Assembly: GCA_041556195.1 (NCBI GenBank)
Contig: JBFFIY010000003.1
Location: 7,504-71,503 of the forward strand
DNA length: 64,000 bases
DNA from: Enterobacterales bacterium
Lineage (GTDB): Bacteria; Pseudomonadota; Gammaproteobacteria; Enterobacterales; GCA-002770795
Reading direction: 5' to 3'
Shown here in pieces: positions 2-10,013 of this stretch. Made by a program: the position numbers and the translations under genes. The notes under the pieces are model-generated. The model saw only the letters and a program-made list of their open reading frames with translations. It ran no database searches and was not told where the DNA came from. Position 1 is the first letter of the stretch. Each line of letters begins with the position of its first letter.

Positions 2-1171
2 GTTGAATACGCGAGTGGTATTGTAGAAAAACTTAAAGGGGAATTTAGTCGTCAGGTAGGTACTGGCATTGACACTTGTTCAGAGCGTCAACCACTTGGC
101 ATAGTCGCTGGAATTACCCCGTTTAATTTTCCTGCGATGGTGCCTTTATGGATGATCCCAATGGCTCTGGCAACAGGTAATACTTTTATTTTAAAACCCT
201 CGGAACGCGACCCATCCAGCGCCAACCTGATCCATCAATTATTTACTGAAGCAGGCTTGCCTGAAGGTGTTCTTAATGTGGTTCACGGCGGCAAAGATGC
301 CGTTGATGCAATTCTTGACCATAAAGATATACATGCTGTGAGCTTCGTTGGTTCGACCCCTATCGCCGAATACGTATACACCCGTGGATCTGCAGCAGGC
401 AAACGTGTGCAGGCTCTTGGCGGTGCTAAAAATCATATGGTCATAATGCCCGATGCTGATCTTGACCAAGCGGCTGATGCCCTGATGGGAGCTGGATTTG
501 GCTCCGCTGGCGAACGTTGTATGGCAATTAGTGTTGCAGTACCTGTTGGAAAAGAAACTGCTGATCGACTGGTTGAAAAACTGGTATCACGGGTAGAGGC
601 AATAAAAATTGGCCCAAGTGATGATAGTCAAGCTGAAATGGGGCCAGTGATCACTTCAGACGCCAAGGCAAGAATTGAAGGTTTAATTGCCAAGGGGCAA
701 GAAGAAGGTGCAAAAGTTCTGGTTGATGGCAGAGGATTTCAAGTTAAGGGGCATGAGTGCGGTTTTTGGTTAGGCGGAACCTTATTAGATGCTGTTACTC
801 CAGAAATGGCCGTTTATAAAGAAGAAATTTTTGGCCCCGTTTTATCCATTGTAAGGGCTGACTCATATGAGCAGGCGGTTACTTTAATTAATGACCATGA
901 ATACGGCAATGGCACAGCGATCTTCACCCGAGACGGAGATACAGCTAGAGACTTTGCGGCAAATATTCAGGTTGGTATGGTAGGTGTTAATGTCCCTATT
1001 CCGGTACCGGTTGCCTACCATAGTTTTGGCGGTTGGAAGCGTTCAATTTTTGGCGCTCACGGTATTTACGGGCCTGAAGCTGTGCATTTTTATACCAAAC
1101 TTAAAACCGTAACGACACAATGGCCCACCGGGATCCGTTCTGGTGCAAAGTATACTTTTCCCAGCATGTAA
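2..1171 (+). CDS. mmsA: methylmalonate-semialdehyde dehydrogenase (CoA-acylating), 5' end outside window
   Basis: The frame stays open to the window start; the track ORF 137..1171 is only the part after an internal Met. Aldehyde dehydrogenase fold with catalytic Cys context GERCMA and C-terminal [22 protein letters not shown], typical of MmsA. Adjacent to pyrimidine/beta-alanine catabolic genes. Confidence 0.85.
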
Positions 1172-1256
1172 TATTTTTATTGAATGTTCGAACTAACATG
1201 ATCTAACTAGAATAATCGAACTAGAATTATCTAACTGAAAAAATGAGAGAAAAATT

Positions 1257-2135
1257 ATGACAGAAAAAGCAACACTTAGAGGTGGCTTGATCCAGATGGC
1301 CTTGAAATCATCAACGGATAACGACCCTGAAACTATACGTCAGGCGATGATTGAAGCGCATATTCCATTAATACGTGAAGCGGGTGAAAAGGGTGTACAA
1401 GTACTTTGTTTTCAAGAAGTCTTTACTCAACCTTATTTCTGTCCAAGCCAGGATCCTAAATGGTATGAAAGCGCTGAATTGATCCCGGAGGGTCCAACAA
1501 CCCAGCTGATGCAAGAGTTTGCTGCAGAATATAAAATGGTTATTGTCGTTCCAATTTATGAACGAGATGCAGTTACTGGTGTTTATTACAACACTGCAGC
1601 GGTAATTGATGCCGATGGCAGTTATTTGGGTAAATATCGTAAAACCCATATTCCACAGGTCGCGGGTTTTTGGGAAAAATTCTTTTTTAAACCCGGCTCA
1701 TCAGACTGGCCAGTGTTTGATACTCAGTATTGCAAATTAGGTGTATATATCTGCTACGATCGTCACTTTCCTGAAGGCTGGCGTGCGCTGGCATTAAATG
1801 GAGCTGAGTATATTGTTAATCCATCTGCAACGGTTGCCGGACTTTCCGAATACCTATGGAAGTTAGAACAACCTGCTTCGGCAGCCGCTAATGGTTGTTG
1901 GATTGGCGCTATCAACCGTATTGGACATGAACTACCATGGGATATTGGTGAGTTCTACGGACAAAGCTATTTTGTTAATCCTCGTGGTCAAATCGAAAAA
2001 GAAGCCAGTCGTGATCAAGATGAACTGATTATTCATGATATGGATATGAATTTAGTCAAAGAAGTACGTAATAACTGGCAATTTTTCAGAGATCGTCGTC
2101 CAAGTACCTATGGCAAATTGACCGATGGAGAGTAG
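1257..2135 (+). CDS. beta-ureidopropionase (N-carbamoyl-beta-alanine amidohydrolase), CN-hydrolase superfamily
   Basis: 292 aa. Nitrilase-superfamily Glu/Lys/Cys contexts (CFQEVF, YRKTHIP, VYICYDRHFPE). The NPSATVAGLSEYLWKLEQPASAAANG block resembles eukaryotic-type beta-ureidopropionases. Genomic context with dihydropyrimidinase. Confidence 0.8.
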   Translation: MTEKATLRGGLIQMALKSSTDNDPETIRQAMIEAHIPLIREAGEKGVQVLCFQEVFTQPYFCPSQDPKWYESAELIPEGPTTQLMQEFAAEYKMVIVVPIYERDAVTGVYYNTAAVIDADGSYLGKYRKTHIPQVAGFWEKFFFKPGSSDWPVFDTQYCKLGVYICYDRHFPEGWRALALNGAEYIVNPSATVAGLSEYLWKLEQPASAAANGCWIGAINRIGHELPWDIGEFYGQSYFVNPRGQIEKEASRDQDELIIHDMDMNLVKEVRNNWQFFRDRRPSTYGKLTDGE

Positions 2136-2174
2136 TGCGCAAAAATCCTAAAACATACAGCCGCTGGGGTATAA

Positions 2175-3623
2175 ATGAATTCAATCGATAATAGCAATAC
2201 CAGAATTGCAGACGATTTGTGGAACAAAGATCTGGCTCCAACCACTCCTCAAAATCGCACCTGGGACTGGAAGTCTTATGCTGCGCTTTGGGTGGCTATG
2301 GTGGTATGTGTCCCAACTTATATGCTGGCCGGTGGTCTGGTGGCTGAAGGAATGGCCTGGTGGCAAGCGGTGATCACCGTACTACTTGGTAATGTGATCG
2401 TGCTTGTACCCATGATATTAATTGGACATGCAGGAGCTAAACACGGAATCCCATTTCCAGTGCTACTGCGTTCTGCTTTCGGCACCAAAGGTGCGCGGAT
2501 CCCTGCTGTAGCGAGAGGTTTAGTGGCGTGTGGCTGGTTTGGTATCAACACCTGGGTAGGTGGCTCGGCGATTTATGTCATTGTCAATGCATTAACAGGA
2601 GATCTCATCACCGGTAGTGCATTGCCATTTCTAGGAATTGATTTAGGCCAATTTATCAGCTTTCTGGCGTTTTGGGCCATGCACTTATACTTCATAAAAA
2701 ATGGAACCGAAAGTATCCGTTGGCTCGAAACCTATGCAGCCCCGTTTTTAATTGCAATGGGTTTAACGCTTTTAGGCTGGGCATATTATGAAGCGGGTGG
2801 ATTTGGTGAAATGTTGTCTGCGCCATCACAATTTATCGAGGGCGGCGCAAAACAAGGCCAGTTCTGGTCAGTCTTCATTGCCAGCTTAACGGCAATGGTT
2901 GGTTTTTGGGCGACTATGGCATTGAATATTCCCGACTTCACGCGCTTTGCTAAAAGCCAGAAAGATCAAATTATTGGGCAGGCAATTGGACTACCCTTGC
3001 CGATGGCGCTATTCGCATTTATCAGTGTTGCCGTTACTTCAGCAACAGTGACCATTTTCGGGGAAGCTATCTGGGATCCGATAGTTCTGGCTTCACGAAT
3101 GGGTGGCTTAGGTGTCATTGTTGCCCTATCAGCATTGGTAGTTGCAACACTCACCACTAACCTGGCTGCCAATGTGGTTGCACCCGCTTATGGGTTCTCT
3201 AATCTTAGCCCACATAAAATCAGCTTTAAACTCGGAGGTTACATCACTGCAGGCATAGGTATCGCCATTTTCCCATGGAAATTACTGGAAACGGCTGGTG
3301 GCTATTTATTTGTCTGGTTAATTGGCTATTCAGCATTACTCGGACCCATAGCTGGAATTCTACTGGTCGATTACTTTATGGTCAGAAAACGAGTCCTGGA
3401 TCACGATGCACTGTTTGACCACGAAGGGCAATACGGAGCATGGAATAAAGCAGGACTCATTGCATTAGTTATCGGTATTTTACCAAACATCCCTGGTTTT
3501 TTATCCAAAGCCGGTTTAATGGAAAATGTACCCACTTTGTTTATTAATATTTACGACTATGCCTGGTTTGTTGGTCTATTCATTGCTGGAGCGTTATATT
3601 TACTTTTACATCGCCGTCTATGA
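2175..3623 (+). CDS. NCS1 family nucleobase:cation symporter (uracil/dihydropyrimidine/hydantoin-type permease)
   Basis: 482 aa polytopic membrane protein with the overall NCS1 pattern (N-terminal NKDLAPT..RTW, about 12 hydrophobic segments). Located between beta-ureidopropionase and dihydropyrimidinase. Confidence 0.8.
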   Translation: MNSIDNSNTRIADDLWNKDLAPTTPQNRTWDWKSYAALWVAMVVCVPTYMLAGGLVAEGMAWWQAVITVLLGNVIVLVPMILIGHAGAKHGIPFPVLLRSAFGTKGARIPAVARGLVACGWFGINTWVGGSAIYVIVNALTGDLITGSALPFLGIDLGQFISFLAFWAMHLYFIKNGTESIRWLETYAAPFLIAMGLTLLGWAYYEAGGFGEMLSAPSQFIEGGAKQGQFWSVFIASLTAMVGFWATMALNIPDFTRFAKSQKDQIIGQAIGLPLPMALFAFISVAVTSATVTIFGEAIWDPIVLASRMGGLGVIVALSALVVATLTTNLAANVVAPAYGFSNLSPHKISFKLGGYITAGIGIAIFPWKLLETAGGYLFVWLIGYSALLGPIAGILLVDYFMVRKRVLDHDALFDHEGQYGAWNKAGLIALVIGILPNIPGFLSKAGLMENVPTLFINIYDYAWFVGLFIAGALYLLLHRRL

Positions 3624-3684
3624 ACTATTTATCCAATATTCATTATTAATAAGATTAGCTGGATAGTTGCAAGAAAGTATTTAA

Positions 3685-5142
<1,458 letters not shown>

Positions 5143-5438
5143 GAAGAAGTTCATCACGAAACACGAAATTAATCTGTGGTGGAGAACTTGCGTCTGATGA
5201 AAAAACGTGGAATCTTTAACTTCAAATTGAATACAAAATGAATGGAAAACGGTTACTAGGTATGGTTAATATTCAAAAAAAACAAGAAACCAAAGCCAAC
5301 TCCAAAAAACACTTCTCTCACTTAGCAAACAAAAACCATAAATAAGTATCAGGTGGCTGTGTCCAGCGGCACAGTTCAACAGAGATTTACATTGAATAGT
5401 TAGGCTTTTATCTTGAGTGAGAATAGTAGGAAACTTAA

Positions 5439-6167
5439 ATGGAAAATAATGAATTAGATTACAAAAGAAATAATTACACTCATTTGTCTGAAGCGATTGA
5501 TGATCTTGAAAAGAATATCAGACGTTACCAAAGTGTGGGTAATATTGGATTAATTATATCTGGCGCGTTATTCGTTGTGTTGGGTTTTTTTGTGTATCAT
5601 TTGTTTGAAGGAACCTTATCTAGCGTAAGAACGTTAGGCCTCGAAGATACAGTAATCTCCTATACAATTGACCCTAAAAAGGGAGCGAAAAAAATAGTTA
5701 TAAAAGGCGATGAAGCGCCAATAGAACAAAAGTTAGAAAGAGAAAACTCAGAGTCGTTTGTGATCTTGGATGGAGAGGCTAGAGTAACCAAAACAGTATC
5801 AACTGATAACACCAGTATGGTTGTGTTATCTATAGTGGTTTATATATTAAGAACATCTCTGCTTGGTTCATTCGTTCTTTTGTCGCTAACGTACACTGTT
5901 AAGTTTACTACATCATCGTTTGACCAAGCGGTTCGTTTTACTAAGCGAAAACATGCATCACAGTTTCTTTTGGAGATGTTTAAGCATTATAACCCAGAGA
6001 TTTCAAATGTGCCAAAGATTATGGATGCATTTGGTGAGTGGAATGTTAATGTTGAATCAGCTTACACCGATGTAAAAGCAAACGAAAAAGCATTCAAAAC
6101 ATTCTTTGAACATCTAGGTAAATTAGATGAGACTTCAACAAATAAAGCCAAGGACAAACAAGCCTAA
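5439..6167 (+). CDS. hypothetical protein with two hydrophobic segments (integron-cassette-like ORF)
   Basis: 242-aa ORF with hydrophobic stretches GLIISGALFVVLGFFVY and MVVLSIVVYILRTSLLGSFVLLSL. I recognise no family. It starts 34 bp after a GTTAGGC core, and its stop codon lies inside the GCCTAAC core of an attC-like site. Confidence 0.55.
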   Translation: MENNELDYKRNNYTHLSEAIDDLEKNIRRYQSVGNIGLIISGALFVVLGFFVYHLFEGTLSSVRTLGLEDTVISYTIDPKKGAKKIVIKGDEAPIEQKLERENSESFVILDGEARVTKTVSTDNTSMVVLSIVVYILRTSLLGSFVLLSLTYTVKFTTSSFDQAVRFTKRKHASQFLLEMFKHYNPEISNVPKIMDAFGEWNVNVESAYTDVKANEKAFKTFFEHLGKLDETSTNKAKDKQA

Positions 6168-6214
6168 CCAGCGCGGTCAAGCGGACAGCCCACCGCTTAC
6201 CGCGAACGTTAGAG
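6162..6214 (+). other. integron attC-like recombination site
   Basis: Sequence GCCTAAC-cagcgcggtcaagcgg-acagccca-ccgcttaccgcgaac-GTTAGAG. It has an RYYYAAC core, a GTTRRRY inverse core, and imperfect inverted repeats with one unpaired base, closely resembling classical short attC sites. Confidence 0.75.
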
Positions 6215-6524
6215 CAAAGCACAATTATGGCAGAATGGGAAAATCCAAAAACATTTGAATCCGGCTATGGTCCAGGTATCGAAATTACAAGACTAGATCT
6301 TTATCGTCTTTAGGAATTAACTAGAATTAACTTGGACAGCCATAACTTAAAACAGCAAAATAAGTTCATCAAAAATATATTTTCCCAGGGTGCAAAACAT
6401 TGATTTTTGAAGAAAACATTTCTGGAATGAAGAAATTATCAGAGAGGTTTGAAAAAACTCAAAATACAGGCATAGCTAAGCTCGGAACCCCGATTTTTGT
6501 TCTTGTTTATGAAGATGTTGGGCT

Positions 6525-7502
6525 TTATGCTGGAGATTCAAACGGCGAAGCTTTGCCTTGACCATTCATCCACTTGCGACCAACTTTTAGAGCGATAGCT
6601 TTTATCATTTCCTTTGAACCAGCTAACCTGAAATTACGTTTTCCGAAATGATTGACTTGTTTTATCCAGGTGTCGGGCTCTATTTGCAATCGACTTAAAA
6701 TAGGTTTGAGATTAATGGGAATTGAACCGGATTTATTCTCTCTAATTGCTCTGCCTGACCAGTCAATGAGTTCAAGGTAATCGTTTAAATAAAACGGTAT
6801 GCCCTGACTGTTACTATTATCGCCATCCATTACCAATAAATTATCGGCTTGATGAGGTTTCCCCAGATGCTGCTGTATCCTTTCTCGAACGGATGTATAC
6901 TCAGAGTTTTCAGGAGTCATAGCTATATTGGCCCTAATCGGATTTAAATCTACATAGGCCATGCAGGTCATAAGTGCTGCTTCATCAAGCAATGCTTGTG
7001 ATTTAAATCTTCCCTCCCAGAAACGTCCTGTACACTTATCTTCCTTATTGGCTAACCTGGCCACATGTTCATTCAAACAGCGCATAAACCAGCTTAAGTC
7101 TGATAAACGTTCTCTTCATTTTTCAGTTTGAGTATCCAGTGCCATCTTTTGAAAATCAGAAAGAGGGTTGCCCGATTGATACATCTGAATTAACAGTCCA
7201 CCAGAGTAGAGCTTTTGCCATCGCTCAATGACTTCAGCTTGTGACCAATGTTTAGACTCCTCTGGGGACAATCTGAGCACAAGATGATAATGGTTTGACA
7301 TGACTGCATAAGCGCAGATGTCAATAGCAAAAACAGAAGAAAGTAAATTGATTCTATCAACAATCCATTGTCTTCGATGCTCAAATGACTTGCCTGAAAA
7401 CTCACCTTTACCACATAGAAAAGCTCTACGGACACAGCGACCAATACAGTGATAATAGGGGGTATCTGAGACTGAAACGATATTTTGACGGGGTTGTGTC
7501 AT
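6525..7502 (-). pseudogene. IS200-like Y1 (HUH) transposase family gene interrupted by one in-frame TGA
   Basis: Track ORFs 7116..7502 and 6525..7085 are in the same frame, separated only by a TGA at 7116..7118. The N-terminal part has the HUH motif (SNHYHLVL). The C-terminal part has FWEGRFKSQALLDE and AYVDLNPIRA, typical of this transposase-like family. Confidence 0.8.
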
Positions 7503-7603
7503 GTTGTTTCCTCCTGAAACAATGGTTTTAACTTCCTTATACTTGATTAAATTAAACTAATTGAGTTAGATTGTCAAAAAAGAAATGGGTGTCCATTAAA
7601 TCG

Positions 7604-7719
7604 TAAGAGCAAAACCAGGCACTGGTACTTATGTCAAACGTCCTGCATTTCATGCCGCTTTTGATGCTTTGAAGAAAGTGGCGGAGAGGAATCGGCCAGT
7701 GAAGGTTGATCGGGGGTAG
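7604..7719 (+). pseudogene. displaced 3' fragment of a dihydropyrimidinase gene (direct repeat copy 2)
   Basis: Encodes ..[37 protein letters not shown] with no upstream coding sequence. It matches 5027..5142 except for mostly synonymous changes. Confidence 0.85.
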
Positions 7720-8052
7720 TAGGTTTATTGAAGGGTATTCTTTATCTTATTGAAAATCACAAAAAATAAAACAATGGCAAGGTTGGCTATTGCAAATTGC
7801 CATAGAATTAGCTGTTAAGTGCAAAAAACTGAAGATTCATGCTAACATCAGAACAATATTACATTGTTTTAGGTCGTCAAATAGGCTAAGTGATGAAAAA
7901 GTGTTGTAACTATGCTATCAATAAATAAAGCATATAACCAAAAGTTGTTTCTGACTCCGTAAACTGTCACGGTTTTTGAAAAAAACTCAAAAGTCACGCC
8001 AACATACTCCACCAAAGAACAGGGCGTTAGGCGAAAAGGAAATGCTTAAAAT

Positions 8053-8355
8053 ATGAAGCAAAAGATAATTTCGTCAGCACAAAAGAAAATACTTTTCTTG
8101 CCACATGCAATTAAACAAATGTCTCATCCAGATAGAATGATTACAGCCGATGAAATAAGAGAAAGCGTTTTTTTGGGTGAAATTATCGAAGAGTATCCAG
8201 AAGATCAAAGAGGGGAAAGTTGTTTAATTTTCAATTCAAAACAGAATAGGGTAATACATGTGGTTTGCTCACCCAAGGTTGAGTATTTAGCTATAATAAC
8301 GGCTTACGTACCAGATCCGGCTCAATGGTCATCAGATTTTAAAAAGAGGAGGTAA
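8053..8355 (+). CDS. DUF4258-like putative toxin
   Basis: 100 aa. The pattern HAIKQM..R.I..DEI......GEIIEEYP.D....S.L......N..IHVV.........IITAY.PD...W matches what I recall of DUF4258 proteins. Its stop is 1 bp from the start of a YgiT-type zinc-finger ORF. Confidence 0.65.
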   Translation: MKQKIISSAQKKILFLPHAIKQMSHPDRMITADEIRESVFLGEIIEEYPEDQRGESCLIFNSKQNRVIHVVCSPKVEYLAIITAYVPDPAQWSSDFKKRR

Positions 8356-8356
8356 T

Positions 8357-8572
8357 ATGGAGTGTTTTCATTGTAAAGGCAAAATGATCAGAGGTAATGC
8401 ACCATTTAGCTCAGATCGAAATGGTTATCACATTTCATGGGACTCTATTCCGGCATGGATCTGCACACAATGTGGTGAAGCTCTTTTTGAGGAAAATGAA
8501 GTGAACCATATTCAAAAAGCATTACAACAAATTGATCACGAAACAATTGCACTAACATCAAAAACAGCCTAA
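8357..8572 (+). CDS. YgiT/MqsA-type zinc-finger antitoxin-like protein
   Basis: 71 aa with CxxC...CxxC (CFHCKG ... CTQCGE), typical of YgiT-type zinc-finger domains paired with DUF4258 toxins. Confidence 0.65.
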   Translation: MECFHCKGKMIRGNAPFSSDRNGYHISWDSIPAWICTQCGEALFEENEVNHIQKALQQIDHETIALTSKTA

Positions 8573-8647
8573 CCAGTGCGTGCATTTGACCGTTTACCCG
8601 CTTTGCACTCCGTGCTATGCATGCAAACGATGGCACACAAGTTACTT
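8567..8647 (+). other. candidate attC-like site (longer, less regular)
   Basis: It begins with the same AGCCTAACCAGYGCG as the 6162 site, again with the ORF stop inside the core. It ends at GTTACTT. Manual folding gives only imperfect pairing of the flanks (taac/gtta, gtg.g/c.cac). Confidence 0.45.
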
Positions 8648-9228
8648 AGACAGGCATAAGAGGTTATCCAGGCTATGGCTACTAAGCTTTTTTAAAAAGA
8701 ACCTAGGTGTTTTGTAAAGTGCTGTAATGAATATTCAATTTATTGATATTAAAAACAAAATATTACGCACTATATTTTCAAAAGGTATAGTGTCGTGAGG
8801 TTTAGTAGGGTAACTGGTTGTTTCGAAAAGACCCGGACATCCCACTCTTGATTATAAAAAATAATTTCCCAAGAATGGGGCACCCACAAGTTACAACAGA
8901 GAAACAAGAATCCTGGCTTCTAAATAGAAACCAGGGATTAGGTTGTCCTAGAAAGTTAAGGTTGACTATGGCAATTTGCCATAAAATTAGCTGTTATAAA
9001 TGAAGAGAAATAGATATGAAGATCACAGAACTTTCGCTAGGAAGTGATATAACAAAAAGTGCAGGTCTTCTACCTGTTTTTATGAAGGGTATTGATAATA
9101 CAGTATTACTTGCTCAAATAAAAAGGGACAGGCACTTAAAAAACACTTTTTGCCAGGTGATCTTTGGTTTTCAGGGGGCATCTAGCCAGAGAAAATGCGG
9201 TTTGTAAATTGATTAAAGGAAATATACT

Positions 9229-9579
9229 ATGATCTCCCAATTGAATAAACAACTTTGCCAGGCATGTAAAGCAGATGCGCCTCAAGTGAGCGACAAGGAA
9301 CTCGCCTTGTTGATTAAACAGATCCCTGATTGGTCAGTTGAAGTACGGCCTGTTAATGAAAAAGATGTGATGCAACTTGAACGCTCTTTTCAATTCAAAA
9401 ATTTTAAACTTGCACTTGAATTTACCAACCGAGTGGCAGATCTGGCTGAGCAAGAAGGCCACCACCCAGCGTTATTAACCGAATGGGGAAAAGTGACTGT
9501 AACCTGGTGGTCTCATAAAATAAAAGGACTGCATCAAAATGATTTTATTTGCGCAGCTAAGACCGATTCTTTATTTTGA
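9229..9579 (+). CDS. phhB: 4a-hydroxytetrahydrobiopterin (pterin-4-alpha-carbinolamine) dehydratase
   Basis: 116 aa. [21 protein letters not shown] matches the PCD/DCoH signature. RBS aaaggaaat lies upstream. Confidence 0.85.
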
Positions 9580-9584
9580 TTAAG

Positions 9585-9737
9585 AGTAACTATTCAGCTT
9601 ACTCCTAAAATGAGCCATTTCGTCGTTCAAAAATGGTCAAATAATCGAGTATAATCACATTTTTTGCCTCGAACTGACTCATTTTAGGGGCAACCTGAAC
9701 AGCTACAGGTGCATTTAGCGACTCACTGAATAGTTAC
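9585..9737. repeat. hairpin-forming intergenic repeat, family 1, copy A
   Basis: About 153 bp. The termini gtaactattcag / ctgaatagttac are inverted. An inner inverted pair is cctaaaatgag / ctcattttagg. Two more copies lie at 45165 and 45332. Confidence 0.85.
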
Positions 9738-10013
9738 GATTGAGGTATGTTTTTTATCGGAATTATAAGGGATACAGGTTTTATAAAAAGTCAATCTGGT
9801 GAATCGGGCTTCAATAGTTGGTTTTATTGTTTATAGTTTTTTCAACCTGAAAAGTAAGACTATTAGTTGTATTGAGTGAAATCGCTAGTAAATTAGGACA
9901 GGCAAGTGAAGACCTGTGAAGGAGAATTGCTAGGTTAACTTAGTCCCATCAACAGATGATAGTGAGGCTTTCACTAAAGAGTTTATTAAAATTTTGGAGC
10001 GACACAAACCAGA

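Follow-up and report, generated by a model that had tools for sequence, protein, structure and literature searches.

The interval between the dihydropyrimidinase gene and phhB in the window (the whole 64-kb stretch of DNA analyzed here) is read as the remnant of an integron cassette array that lacks an integrase, that is, as a small and partly fossilized CALIN, a reading to which we assign a probability of about 80%. Between these housekeeping genes lie two integron-type cassettes, one for a small membrane protein and one for a toxin-antitoxin (TA) pair, together with one intact attC and one decayed attC. As such, the locus is a further instance of a well-known type of relic, the integrase-less and decaying cassette array, and is in itself ordinary. 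A complete integron consists of an intI gene with an adjacent attI and the promoter Pc. This combination is absent from the window, in which neither an IntI1-like ORF nor a significant tblastn match to IntI1 was found (best E-value, 7.7), and it is the dihydropyrimidinase gene, assigned by Pfam, that lies upstream of the array. The first-pass annotation, which was made from the sequence alone and described the region as CALIN-like and free of an integrase, is borne out in this respect, and all the motifs that it quoted are present where it placed them. Across its 64 kb, the window contains seven GTTAGGC/GCCTAAC cores, against an expectation of about 5.5, and five of these are located within 5399-8573. 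Among 80 genome loci with a dihydropyrimidinase operon (protein identity of up to 89%), none has phhB, cassettes, or attC matches downstream.

The site at 6162-6214 (+ strand; site 1) is a genuine attC. The attC is recombined by the integron integrase as a folded single strand, and its inverse cores, R'' (RYYYAAC) and R' (GTTRRRY), pair with each other. In site 1, R'' is GCCTAAC (6162-6168), which contains the stop codon TAA of the upstream ORF (6165-6167), and R' is GTTAGAG (6208-6214); the minimum-energy fold contains five R''/R' pairs, and R' departs from the consensus at one position. The remainder of the 53 nt consists of an unpaired 3x3-nt spacer, an L stem of 12 bp in which a single C is extrahelical, and an 8-nt loop, which together provide the imperfect L''/L' stem, the extrahelical base, and the unpaired central spacer of an attC. 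This C, a G when read on the bottom strand, belongs to the L'' arm, which also carries the extrahelical base in 13 of 13 reference attCs.

Two covariance models, both self-built with small training sets and a shortened calibration, give significant scores for site 1, on the + strand only, which is the orientation of the upstream ORF. Model R1, constructed from 13 unrelated class 1 integron attCs only (plasmid loci L092-L099), matches the site over its full length with 33.2 bits (E = 4.5e-6) and has no other match in the 64-kb window; its best score in 1.31 Mb of unrelated bacterial loci is 18.6 bits, and its own full-length training-type attCs score 25-58 bits. Model R2 gives 28.4 bits. Fold z-scores are -5.6 for the top strand and -4.5 for the bottom strand, with none of 200 shuffles folding as well. 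No other R''...R' pair of the window folds with its R boxes paired at the -0.29 kcal/mol per nt of site 1, and 40 shuffled windows gave -0.20 kcal/mol per nt at best. The earlier description of a "textbook short attC" here agrees with the model score and the z-scores, as does the folding of the bottom strand that had been proposed as a check and that reveals the single extrahelical G. No related attC was found on plasmids with site 1 as the query, and Rfam returned nothing relevant. The extrahelical base is the only one, lies 9 nt after R'' rather than the 8 nt seen in all 13 references, and belongs to a site shorter than any reference attC (57-127 nt), and site 1 is therefore considered only putatively recombination competent.

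The cassette that ends in site 1 begins at the GTTAGGC core at 5399-5405 (+ strand; crossover G|TT at 5399/5400), 33 nt ahead of the ATG at 5439. Its ORF (5439-6167, + strand) encodes 242 amino acids with two hydrophobic segments, belongs to no Pfam, NCBIfam, or PADLOC family, and has just seven homologues among 5.8 billion proteins. Comparison with one of these (contig L082; 70% identical) supports both the start of the cassette and its core boundary, as the homologous contig opens with TTAGGCTT although its 5' UTR has otherwise diverged and retains, besides this start, AGCCTAAC at the stop, in a different frame. No recognizable attC follows GCCTAAC in L082, and no attC remnant was detected upstream of 5399, where the best model match is 4-5 bits. 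Beyond site 1, the start of a next cassette (TTAGAG...; 6209-6524, + strand) contains, on translation, nothing but short ORFs that lack homologues, among them one of 53 amino acids, and reaches the transposase gene described below.

The second cassette carries a DUF4258 toxin gene (8053-8355, + strand; Pfam PF14076, E = 3.7e-18) and the gene for a YgiT-type zinc-finger (MqsA-like) antitoxin (8357-8572, + strand; TIGR03831, E = 4.5e-7), which are 1 nt apart and, from their domains, are predicted to form a type II TA pair. A GTTAGGC core (8026-8032) lies 20 nt ahead of the ATG at 8053. The unit is 80.6% identical to its counterpart in locus L091 from GTTAGGC to GCCTAAC, whereas the flanks, at about 40%, are random, and the same GTTAGGC in L091 is the R' of an 87-nt attC (28 bits). 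In metagenomic loci, TA pairs of this kind are followed by an attC that starts on the stop codon (L109, 35 bits; L136 and L123, 26 bits each; L107 and L119, 22 bits each). AttCs ending in GTTAGGCGAAAA also lie in front of the pair in L119, L136, and L133, and L119 has four attCs within 1.7 kb. The L091 comparison and the leaders of L109, L119, L133, L136, and L140 place the cassette start at the core, and the proposal of the first-pass annotation that both units are cassettes starting at a GTTAGGC core is upheld by the G|TTAGGC starts in the homologues. By this sequence comparison, the DUF4258/YgiT pair recurs as an integron cassette, and its metagenomic homologues in attC arrays share the GTTAGGCGAAAA leader and a terminal attC with its R'' overlapping the Ala-stop codons. 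These loci were found with a protein-based scan, whereas an exact-pattern metagenome scan for the leader returned nothing. The antitoxin falls into a cluster, defined at 90% identity, whose 68 members come from several phyla. In Methylococcales, close homologues of the pair lie between glnE and an aminotransferase gene without cassette signatures, and the TA pair is therefore not always cassette borne. PADLOC returned nothing for the three cassette proteins. A tyrosine-recombinase fragment near the L090/L091 array was considered as an IntI and not counted (29% identity to IntI1, with about 35 residues absent from the subject).

The GTTAGGC core of the TA cassette is also the R' of a decayed attC at 7932-8032 (+ strand; R'' ATATAAC), a relic of the cassette that preceded it. 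R2 matches this stretch with 32.7 bits (E = 9e-6), and R1 does not detect it; as R2 was trained partly on attCs from loci of TA homologues, the match reflects homology to one attC family and is not independent structural evidence. The same homology is apparent from blastn, which relates 7916-8008 to attCs of L123 and L119 (E = 5e-7), and from an identity of 60-64% to members of this family of ~100-nt attCs, where shuffles reach at most 53%. Fold z-scores are -0.06 and -0.5, compared with -4.3 to -10.2 for intact family members. With homology retained at the level of the family but the hairpin lost, 7932-8032 is classified as a relic and not as a working site. The ORF-less stretch 7720-8025, which had been suggested to be a possible empty cassette, does end in cassette material.

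The place where the TA cassette's own attC would be expected (8567-8655, + strand; site 2) holds at best a heavily decayed attC, and the site is not validated. Its GCCTAAC (8567-8573) contains the YgiT stop codon (8570-8572), and its R', GTTACTT (8641-8647), is off consensus at two of four positions. R1 yields no + strand match at an E-value of 10 or below, R2 yields 6.0 bits (E = 2), and fold z-scores of +0.6, -1.1, and -1.0 are no better than those of shuffled sequence; read as an attC on the opposite strand, the site scores 3-5 bits only. GCC-TAA (Ala-stop) terminates every YgiT homologue examined, including those outside a cassette context, so that part of the core is explained by coding. 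The 15-mer AGCCTAACCAGYGCG is present exactly twice, in site 1 and in site 2, and the motif CTAACCAGYGC was found in other loci only as chance matches inside genes. The first-pass annotation had envisaged an array of two attCs, the second being a longer and less regular palindromic site at 8567-8647. Its first member stands at 33.2 bits, whereas the second, which reaches at most 6 bits, folds like shuffled sequence, and owes its GCCTAA to codons, does not.

The two cassettes are separated by a transposase gene and a displaced gene end. The former (6525-7502, - strand) is a pseudogene of a RayT-like Y1 (HUH) transposase with an in-frame TGA at 7116-7118; its matches to NCBIfam REP_Tyr_transpos and Pfam Y1_Tnp are weak and below the curated cutoffs of both, and its homologues number more than 8,000, nearly all of about 325 amino acids. 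The conserved transposase unit extends over about 6547-7593 (DNA homology to L186, 7593..6547) and ends ~10 nt from the displaced gene end, a second copy of the dihydropyrimidinase tail (7604-7718, + strand) that comprises the last 38 codons and the stop codon with the frame intact. The first copy (5027-5141, + strand; direct repeat D1) is the 3' end of the intact gene (ORF 3700-5142; Pfam Amidohydro_1). The duplicated gene tail noted in the first-pass annotation is present, at 95% identity; the 7 nt that differ amount to one nonsynonymous codon, three synonymous codons, and a change of TAA to TAG, and the similarity stops exactly at the stop codon, downstream of which the sequences are unrelated. 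To judge from these differences, the second tail seems to be an allele that was displaced and not a recent duplication. This allelic nature, the pseudogene, and the decayed attC had all been overlooked in the first-pass annotation. A 39-nt direct repeat (7779-7817 and 8958-8996, both + strand; palindrome TGGCAA.TTGCCA in the first copy, 90% identity) was also looked for across the window and 185 loci, and no third copy turned up. An 18-nt similarity between 5390-5407 and 9724-9741 was not used, as many such are estimated to occur by chance in 5 kb.

It could be argued that site 1 is a mere transcription terminator or chance palindrome and that both gene units are ordinary chromosomal genes. 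A hairpin directly after a stop codon and a codon-determined GCCTAA at the end of the TA unit would fit such a view, but no T tract follows the stem, the + strand terminator scan is empty at site 1, no shuffle reached the observed structure, and the cores, spacer, and bulge fit attC geometry; as homology to relatives also ends exactly at the core sites and the TA pair is found inside attC arrays elsewhere, we consider this explanation extremely improbable. REPs are multicopy elements found in inverted pairs on either side of a RAYT gene. With the RayT-like gene only 310 nt away from site 1 and a Y1_Tnp gene adjoining the TA pair in L090/L091 as well, it might be supposed that the hairpins are REP-type palindromes served by the adjacent transposase and not integron sites. 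The stem sequence of site 1 is, however, single copy in the 64 kb, no hairpin is present on the far side of the transposase gene (7503-7603), which is itself a pseudogene, and the site is matched strand specifically by a model built from integron attCs only, all of which leaves hardly any room for a REP/RAYT system.

Two further alternatives concern how the locus came about. If the metagenome-derived contig were a chimera of two coexisting strains, the tail duplication would be an assembly artifact, and with it the adjacency of the cassette units. The tails do differ as alleles do (7 nt, mostly synonymous) and continue into unrelated sequence, and the sole other public contig (Logan L001; 2 kb, identical to 7625-9633) starts inside tail copy 2 and lacks the 7603/7604 junction; yet a chimera requires reads that support a path leading out of the transposase unit and into the tail, and the point at which the conserved transposase unit ends, ~10 nt short of the tail, resembles a genuine insertion junction, such that we regard a chimera as unlikely. 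The conclusions on the attC and the cassettes are unaffected by this alternative. It is somewhat more conceivable, though still doubtful, that the genome has a complete integron elsewhere and that the locus is a live satellite of it, detached by a rearrangement, with its cassettes still shuffled in trans. Site 1 is structurally intact, the relic derives from a homogeneous family of ~100-nt attCs typical of sedentary chromosomal integrons, and for about half of all CALINs the host genome also encodes an IntI (PMC4889954), which counts in favor of such a satellite. Against this, two of the three expected attCs are decayed or unrecognizable, a transposase pseudogene and a gene fragment lie within the array, and there is no integrase within the 64 kb.

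In the remnant array, the first cassette (5400-6208) consists of the ORF with two hydrophobic segments and a structurally intact attC, whose extrahelical-base arm marks the bottom strand as the recombining one, and an IntI acting in trans could in principle excise or capture it. The DUF4258/YgiT pair is a second cassette, which starts at 8027 and represents a type in wide circulation among chromosomal integron arrays. The attC before it belonged to a neighboring cassette, now lost, and its hairpin has been destroyed by point changes; with its own attC unrecognizable or gone, the TA cassette is effectively fixed. As to the history of the array, both cassettes may have arrived by IntI-mediated insertion, either within an array or at a genomic site other than an attC (attG type, GWT), and the attCs of the TA cassette may have decayed because its excision is harmful, TA cassettes with their own promoters being known to penalize excision (PMC11023631). 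The RayT-like transposase unit, together with recombination between two alleles of the locus, could then have joined two array fragments and left the second dihydropyrimidinase tail behind.

Each cassette fragment follows a dihydropyrimidinase stop codon at a distance of 250-310 nt, the two stop codons belonging to different alleles. From this it might be speculated, as a long shot, that the position behind the gene is a lineage-conserved, integrase-independent docking site (an attG hot spot in the role of a surrogate attI) at which arrays are built and subsequently exchanged between strains, the RayT-like Y1 transposase perhaps helping to move fragments along with the gene end. A Y1 transposase, which acts on single-stranded hairpins, adjoins cassette hairpins both in the window and in L091. 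The remnant array adds one more documented case of integron cassettes that end up, and then decay, outside integrons, and leaves the current understanding of integrons unchanged. It combines a cassette with an attC that appears to be in working order and a TA cassette frozen by the loss of its flanking hairpins, with the transposase and the displaced gene end marking how the fragments would have been joined. In addition, recognizing DUF4258/YgiT as a widely circulating cassette with its R'' core within the stop codon is useful for annotating such pairs.

Comparison with known systems places these features in context. The short class 1 attCs (ereA2, 57 nt; aadA1, aadA2, and aadB, 60 nt) have the same order of elements as site 1 (R'', spacer, bulged L'', loop, L', spacer, R'), and GGT-C-AAGCGG / CCGCTT-ACC in site 1 parallels GTT-C-AAGCCG / CGGCTT-AAC in the aadA sites; in contrast, the sequence outside the cores is unrelated, the distance between R'' and the extrahelical base is greater by one nucleotide, and the spacer is mostly base paired, with a 3x3-nt internal loop remaining. 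Like RAYT proteins (NCBIfam NF047646), the product of 6525-7502 has HUH (HYH) and Y...NP.RA motifs and has homologues annotated as "RayT" or "transposase," but this family of about 325 amino acids has a long C-terminal extension, and the window copy has no flanking REP pairs and a premature stop. In attG insertion (5'-GWT-3', by IntI), a cassette is expected to begin as the first one does here, at G|TTAGGC without a remnant of a left attC, as predicted for attC x attG recombination, and later loss of the attC, or "domestication," has been proposed for such cases (bioRxiv 10.1101/2022.09.11.507474). The TA cassette, unlike a single-cassette insertion, does have an attC relic on its left, and at least this part therefore derives from an array. 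Packaging of a type II TA pair as a cassette is likewise known from the Vibrio cholerae superintegron (PMC11023631), and, as with the TA cassettes of sedentary chromosomal integrons, the one described here recurs in metagenomic arrays of several attCs and has an R'' that overlaps the stop codon; it differs in its family, DUF4258 with a YgiT/MqsA-like zinc finger, and in that the window copy is stranded outside any integron between nonfunctional sites.

The closest parallel is with CALINs and SALINs (PMC4889954; bioRxiv 10.1101/2022.09.11.507474), with which the locus shares attC cassettes spaced by less than 4 kb on a single strand, the lack of a nearby intI, a small array size, cassettes unrelated to resistance genes, and a transposable element inside or adjacent to the array. 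Strictly defined, a CALIN requires that two or more attC sites be detected on the same strand within 4 kb (PMC4889954). Here, 1.7 kb of the + strand separates site 1 from the relic, and the locus qualifies only if the decayed site, which is matched by the family-informed model R2 alone, is counted. As there is just one structurally intact attC and the second is a relic at the level of sequence, a strict detector might call the locus a single attC (SALIN). A further difference from these elements is that the array described here is interrupted by a fragment of the neighboring housekeeping gene.

Reading of the region together with an ORF scan against Pfam and NCBIfam establishes the gene order between the dihydropyrimidinase gene (3700-5142, + strand), identified in that scan, and phhB (9229-9579). 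The former is followed by a spacer of 256 nt, a GTTAGGC core (5399-5405), and a 242-aa ORF with two hydrophobic segments (5439-6167, + strand; here the 2-TM ORF), which runs into site 1 (6162-6214, + strand), one of two attC candidates proposed in the first-pass annotation. About 310 nt with no credible gene lead to a RayT-like Y1 transposase gene on the - strand (6525-7502), interrupted by a single in-frame TGA at 7116-7118, and then to 7604-7718, where the final 115 nt of the dihydropyrimidinase gene occur a second time. An ORF-less stretch of 307 nt terminates in a further GTTAGGC (8026-8032), after which come a DUF4258 toxin gene (8053-8355) and a YgiT-type antitoxin gene (8357-8572), together the TA pair. 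The other candidate, site 2 (8567-8647), and an ORF-less stretch of about 580 nt lie between this pair and phhB. Every motif that the first-pass annotation had placed here is present where it was reported.

The proposal that site 1 is an attC is borne out. Upon folding, its 53 nt take the expected attC shape on both strands, with R boxes paired as CTAAC/GTTAG, a 3x3-nt internal loop, a GC-rich stem of 12 bp with one bulged base, and a loop of 8 nt (z = -5.6 and -4.5; equally good folds in 0 of 200 shuffles). When RYYYAAC...GTTRRRY motifs 45-150 nt apart were scanned for R boxes that pair in the minimum-energy fold, site 1 was the sole result in 64 kb, at -0.29 kcal/mol per nt, the best value from 40 shuffled windows being -0.20. 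Scoring by an attC covariance model was the refutation test named beforehand. For such a model (R1), class 1 integrons were located in plasmids via the attI1 sequence, and 13 attCs with boundaries set by hand were taken from eight arrays (cmlA5, aac(6')-Il, GES-24, catB6, aac(6')-31, IMP-34, arr-2, ereA2, dfrA1, aadA2, VIM-4, aadA1, and aadB); variable loops were trimmed before alignment, and canonical R/L pairing was imposed. R1 matches 6162-6214 over its full length, with 33.2 bits and E=4.5e-6; this match, confined to the + strand, is its sole one in the window. Full-length reference attCs score 25-58 bits under this model, and 1.31 Mb of unrelated bacterial loci yield one match, at 18.6 bits. 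In site 1, as in 13 of 13 references, the L'' arm carries the extrahelical base (a C in the top strand and a G in the bottom strand), and the orientation of site 1 consequently fits the attC of the upstream ORF. The bulge is 9 nt from R'', compared with 8 in the references; its being the only one is a deviation from them, and the 53 nt of the site fall below the 57 nt of the shortest reference attC. Two other explanations of the palindrome were rejected: for an intrinsic terminator there is no T tract and no + strand terminator call, and for a multi-copy REP the stem sequence is unique in 64 kb.

The 2-TM ORF has only seven detectable homologues, the nearest of which (70% identity) is encoded on a 1.6-kb metagenome contig, L082. 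This contig begins with TTAGGCTT and carries AGCCTAAC immediately 3' of the stop codon, in a frame different from that in the window. Identity between the two is 69.8% over the unit and about 40% outside it, and the 5' leader and downstream sequence are otherwise unrelated. As only the two inverse cores are conserved, which is what cassette ends predict, the 2-TM unit has cassette boundaries. No recognizable attC follows the GCCTAAC core in L082; about 370 nt (L082 774-1160), likewise without one, separate this core from a GTTAGAT core preceding the next ORF and represent a site that is either decayed or unusually long.

Site 2, also put forward as an attC, did not hold up. R1 gives no match to it on the + strand, even when filters are disabled and E values as high as 10 admitted, and its fold is no better than that of shuffled sequence. 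A second model (R2), built from 26 attCs (the class 1 set plus metagenomic sites, with the window left out), scores it at 6.0 bits (E=2). Sites 1 and 2 have 15 nt in common (AGCCTAACCAGYGCG), a match for which we estimate a chance of roughly 1e-4 once the codon-determined GCCTAA is discounted, and site 2 may be a badly decayed attC. The real second site is located upstream of the TA pair, at 7932-8032, and had been missed. There, R2 scores 32.7 bits (E=9e-6, + strand), with the GTTAGGC core at the end of the match; R1 does not detect it, and the R2 score is to be taken as evidence of homology. Independently, plain blastn matches 7916-8008 to attCs of two comparison loci, L123 and L119 (E=5e-7). 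Global identity of 7932-8032 to four family members is 60-64% (shuffles: mean 45%, maximum 53%), with common blocks visible in the alignment. Intact attCs of this family fold with z of -4.3 to -10.2, and the window copy gives z = -0.06 and -0.5. Judged by its sequence, 7932-8032 would be the relic of an attC that closed the preceding cassette, its hairpin having probably been erased by substitutions.

Two further repeats occur nearby. Directly 3' of the phhB stop codon lies a 152-nt palindromic element (9586-9737) with a perfect 12-bp outer stem (GTAACTATTCAG/CTGAATAGTTAC), a long inner stem (fold z = -4.96), and AAC...GTT termini, without an unpaired spacer or bulges; it matches neither R1 nor R2. 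A 39-nt direct repeat (7779-7817 and 8958-8996, 90% identical) contains the near-perfect palindrome TATGGCAATTTGCCATA, and its copies flank the relic-TA unit on both sides. No further copy was found in the window or in 185 fetched loci, and the repeat might be operator-like in nature or have been left behind by a separate insertion.

The TA pair circulates as an integron cassette. The 90%-identity cluster of its antitoxin comprises 68 sequences, from Methylococcales, Brocadiaceae, and others, and some genomes have the pair between housekeeping genes, without cassette signs. In the Methylococcales contigs L084 and L100-L102 it lies between glnE and a class IV aminotransferase gene; its antitoxin is 90% or more identical, its leader differs, and core sites are lacking, which shows that the module also exists in non-cassette form. 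In L090/L091, an 87-nt attC (28 bits) with GTTAGGC as R' lies upstream of the toxin gene, and the leader that follows is that of the window. The TA unit is 80.6% identical between window and L091 from GTTAGGC to GCCTAAC, with flanks at random level. A protein-guided search of metagenome contigs for the pair gave 80 more loci, among which L109 (35 bits), L136, L123, L107, and L119 have an R1-detected attC that starts on the stop codon of the antitoxin, and L119, L136, and L133 have one that terminates directly ahead of the toxin leader; L119 has four attCs within 1.7 kb. As the Ala-stop codon at the antitoxin end is conserved even in non-cassette copies, and in view of these stop-codon attCs, GCC-TAA-C is the Ala-stop codon and, in cassette copies, the R'' core as well. 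In L091 (519-570, 5239-5299, 6211-6262) and L118 (694-760), cassette ORFs, the TA pair among them, are followed by a 60-67-nt element (GCCTAACGAATAAGGTTAGATTGTG...CACAATCTGAACCGTTTGTTGGAC) that is interleaved with plus-oriented attCs. Its bulged base is on the opposite arm, and the attC model consequently scores it on the minus strand. In L091, an IS200-like element bearing terminal inverted repeats truncates the copy that lies behind the TA pair.

Upstream of the array lies a pyrimidine-catabolism-like cluster (137-5142), comprising, by Pfam or by eye, an aldehyde dehydrogenase-like ORF, a carbon-nitrogen hydrolase-like ORF, a 482-aa permease, and the dihydropyrimidinase. Conservation of the permease-dihydropyrimidinase pair in loci labeled Kangiella, Marinicella, Kordiimonas, and others suggests that this cluster itself moves horizontally. 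Seven nucleotides distinguish the two copies of the dihydropyrimidinase tail; the differences amount to one Val/Ala change, three synonymous codons, and a TAA stop against TAG, and similarity ends exactly at the stop codon. Copy 2 therefore looks like the end of a second, once-functional allele and not like a recent duplication. The transposase is a member of a very large "transposase/RayT" family (more than 8000 members, about 325 aa) that does not reach the curated cut-offs of Pfam Y1_Tnp or NCBIfam REP_Tyr_transpos, and its close homologues are all uninterrupted. DNA homology to a 75% identical copy (L186) spans 7593 to 6547, which leaves about 10 nt between the end of the conserved transposase unit and tail copy 2. 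We propose that one lineage had this unit lodged in the gene's 3' end, with relic, TA pair, and phhB downstream, that another had an intact gene with the 2-TM cassette and its own copy of the unit behind it, and that the present order arose by recombination between the two or by homology-anchored illegitimate recombination. The main alternative is an assembly chimera of two strains, and in its favor the only other public contig starts inside tail copy 2, leaving the junction unspanned.

Integron integrase joins the folded bottom strand of an attC to attI, to another attC, or to a loose GWT genomic site; the last route puts cassettes outside integrons, where hairpins can be lost afterwards (bioRxiv 10.1101/2022.09.11.507474). 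The 2-TM cassette could have arrived by insertion at such a GWT site, which would fit with there being no attC remnant on its left. The attC relic to the left of the TA cassette suggests that an array, or at any rate a part of one, arrived together with this cassette. Excision of TA cassettes, which have promoters of their own, is harmful (PMC11023631), and this may be why the TA-flanking sites have decayed and site 1 has been kept.

Absence of an integrase, as the first-pass annotation had it, is confirmed within the 64-kb window, where tblastn with IntI1 found nothing (best E-value, 7.7). Neither cassettes nor attC matches were present in 80 related dihydropyrimidinase loci, and the array is thus specific to this genome or lineage. 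That annotation's observation was largely real and its interpretation right in part: a CALIN, for which the definition asks two or more attCs on the same strand within 4 kb and no intI (PMC4889954), is what the locus amounts to if the relic is counted as the second attC, a place that site 2 fails to fill. With the relic not counted, the locus has one attC, a SALIN (bioRxiv 10.1101/2022.09.11.507474), accompanied by a stranded cassette. In sum, this is a cassette array of a known kind, small and partly fossilized.
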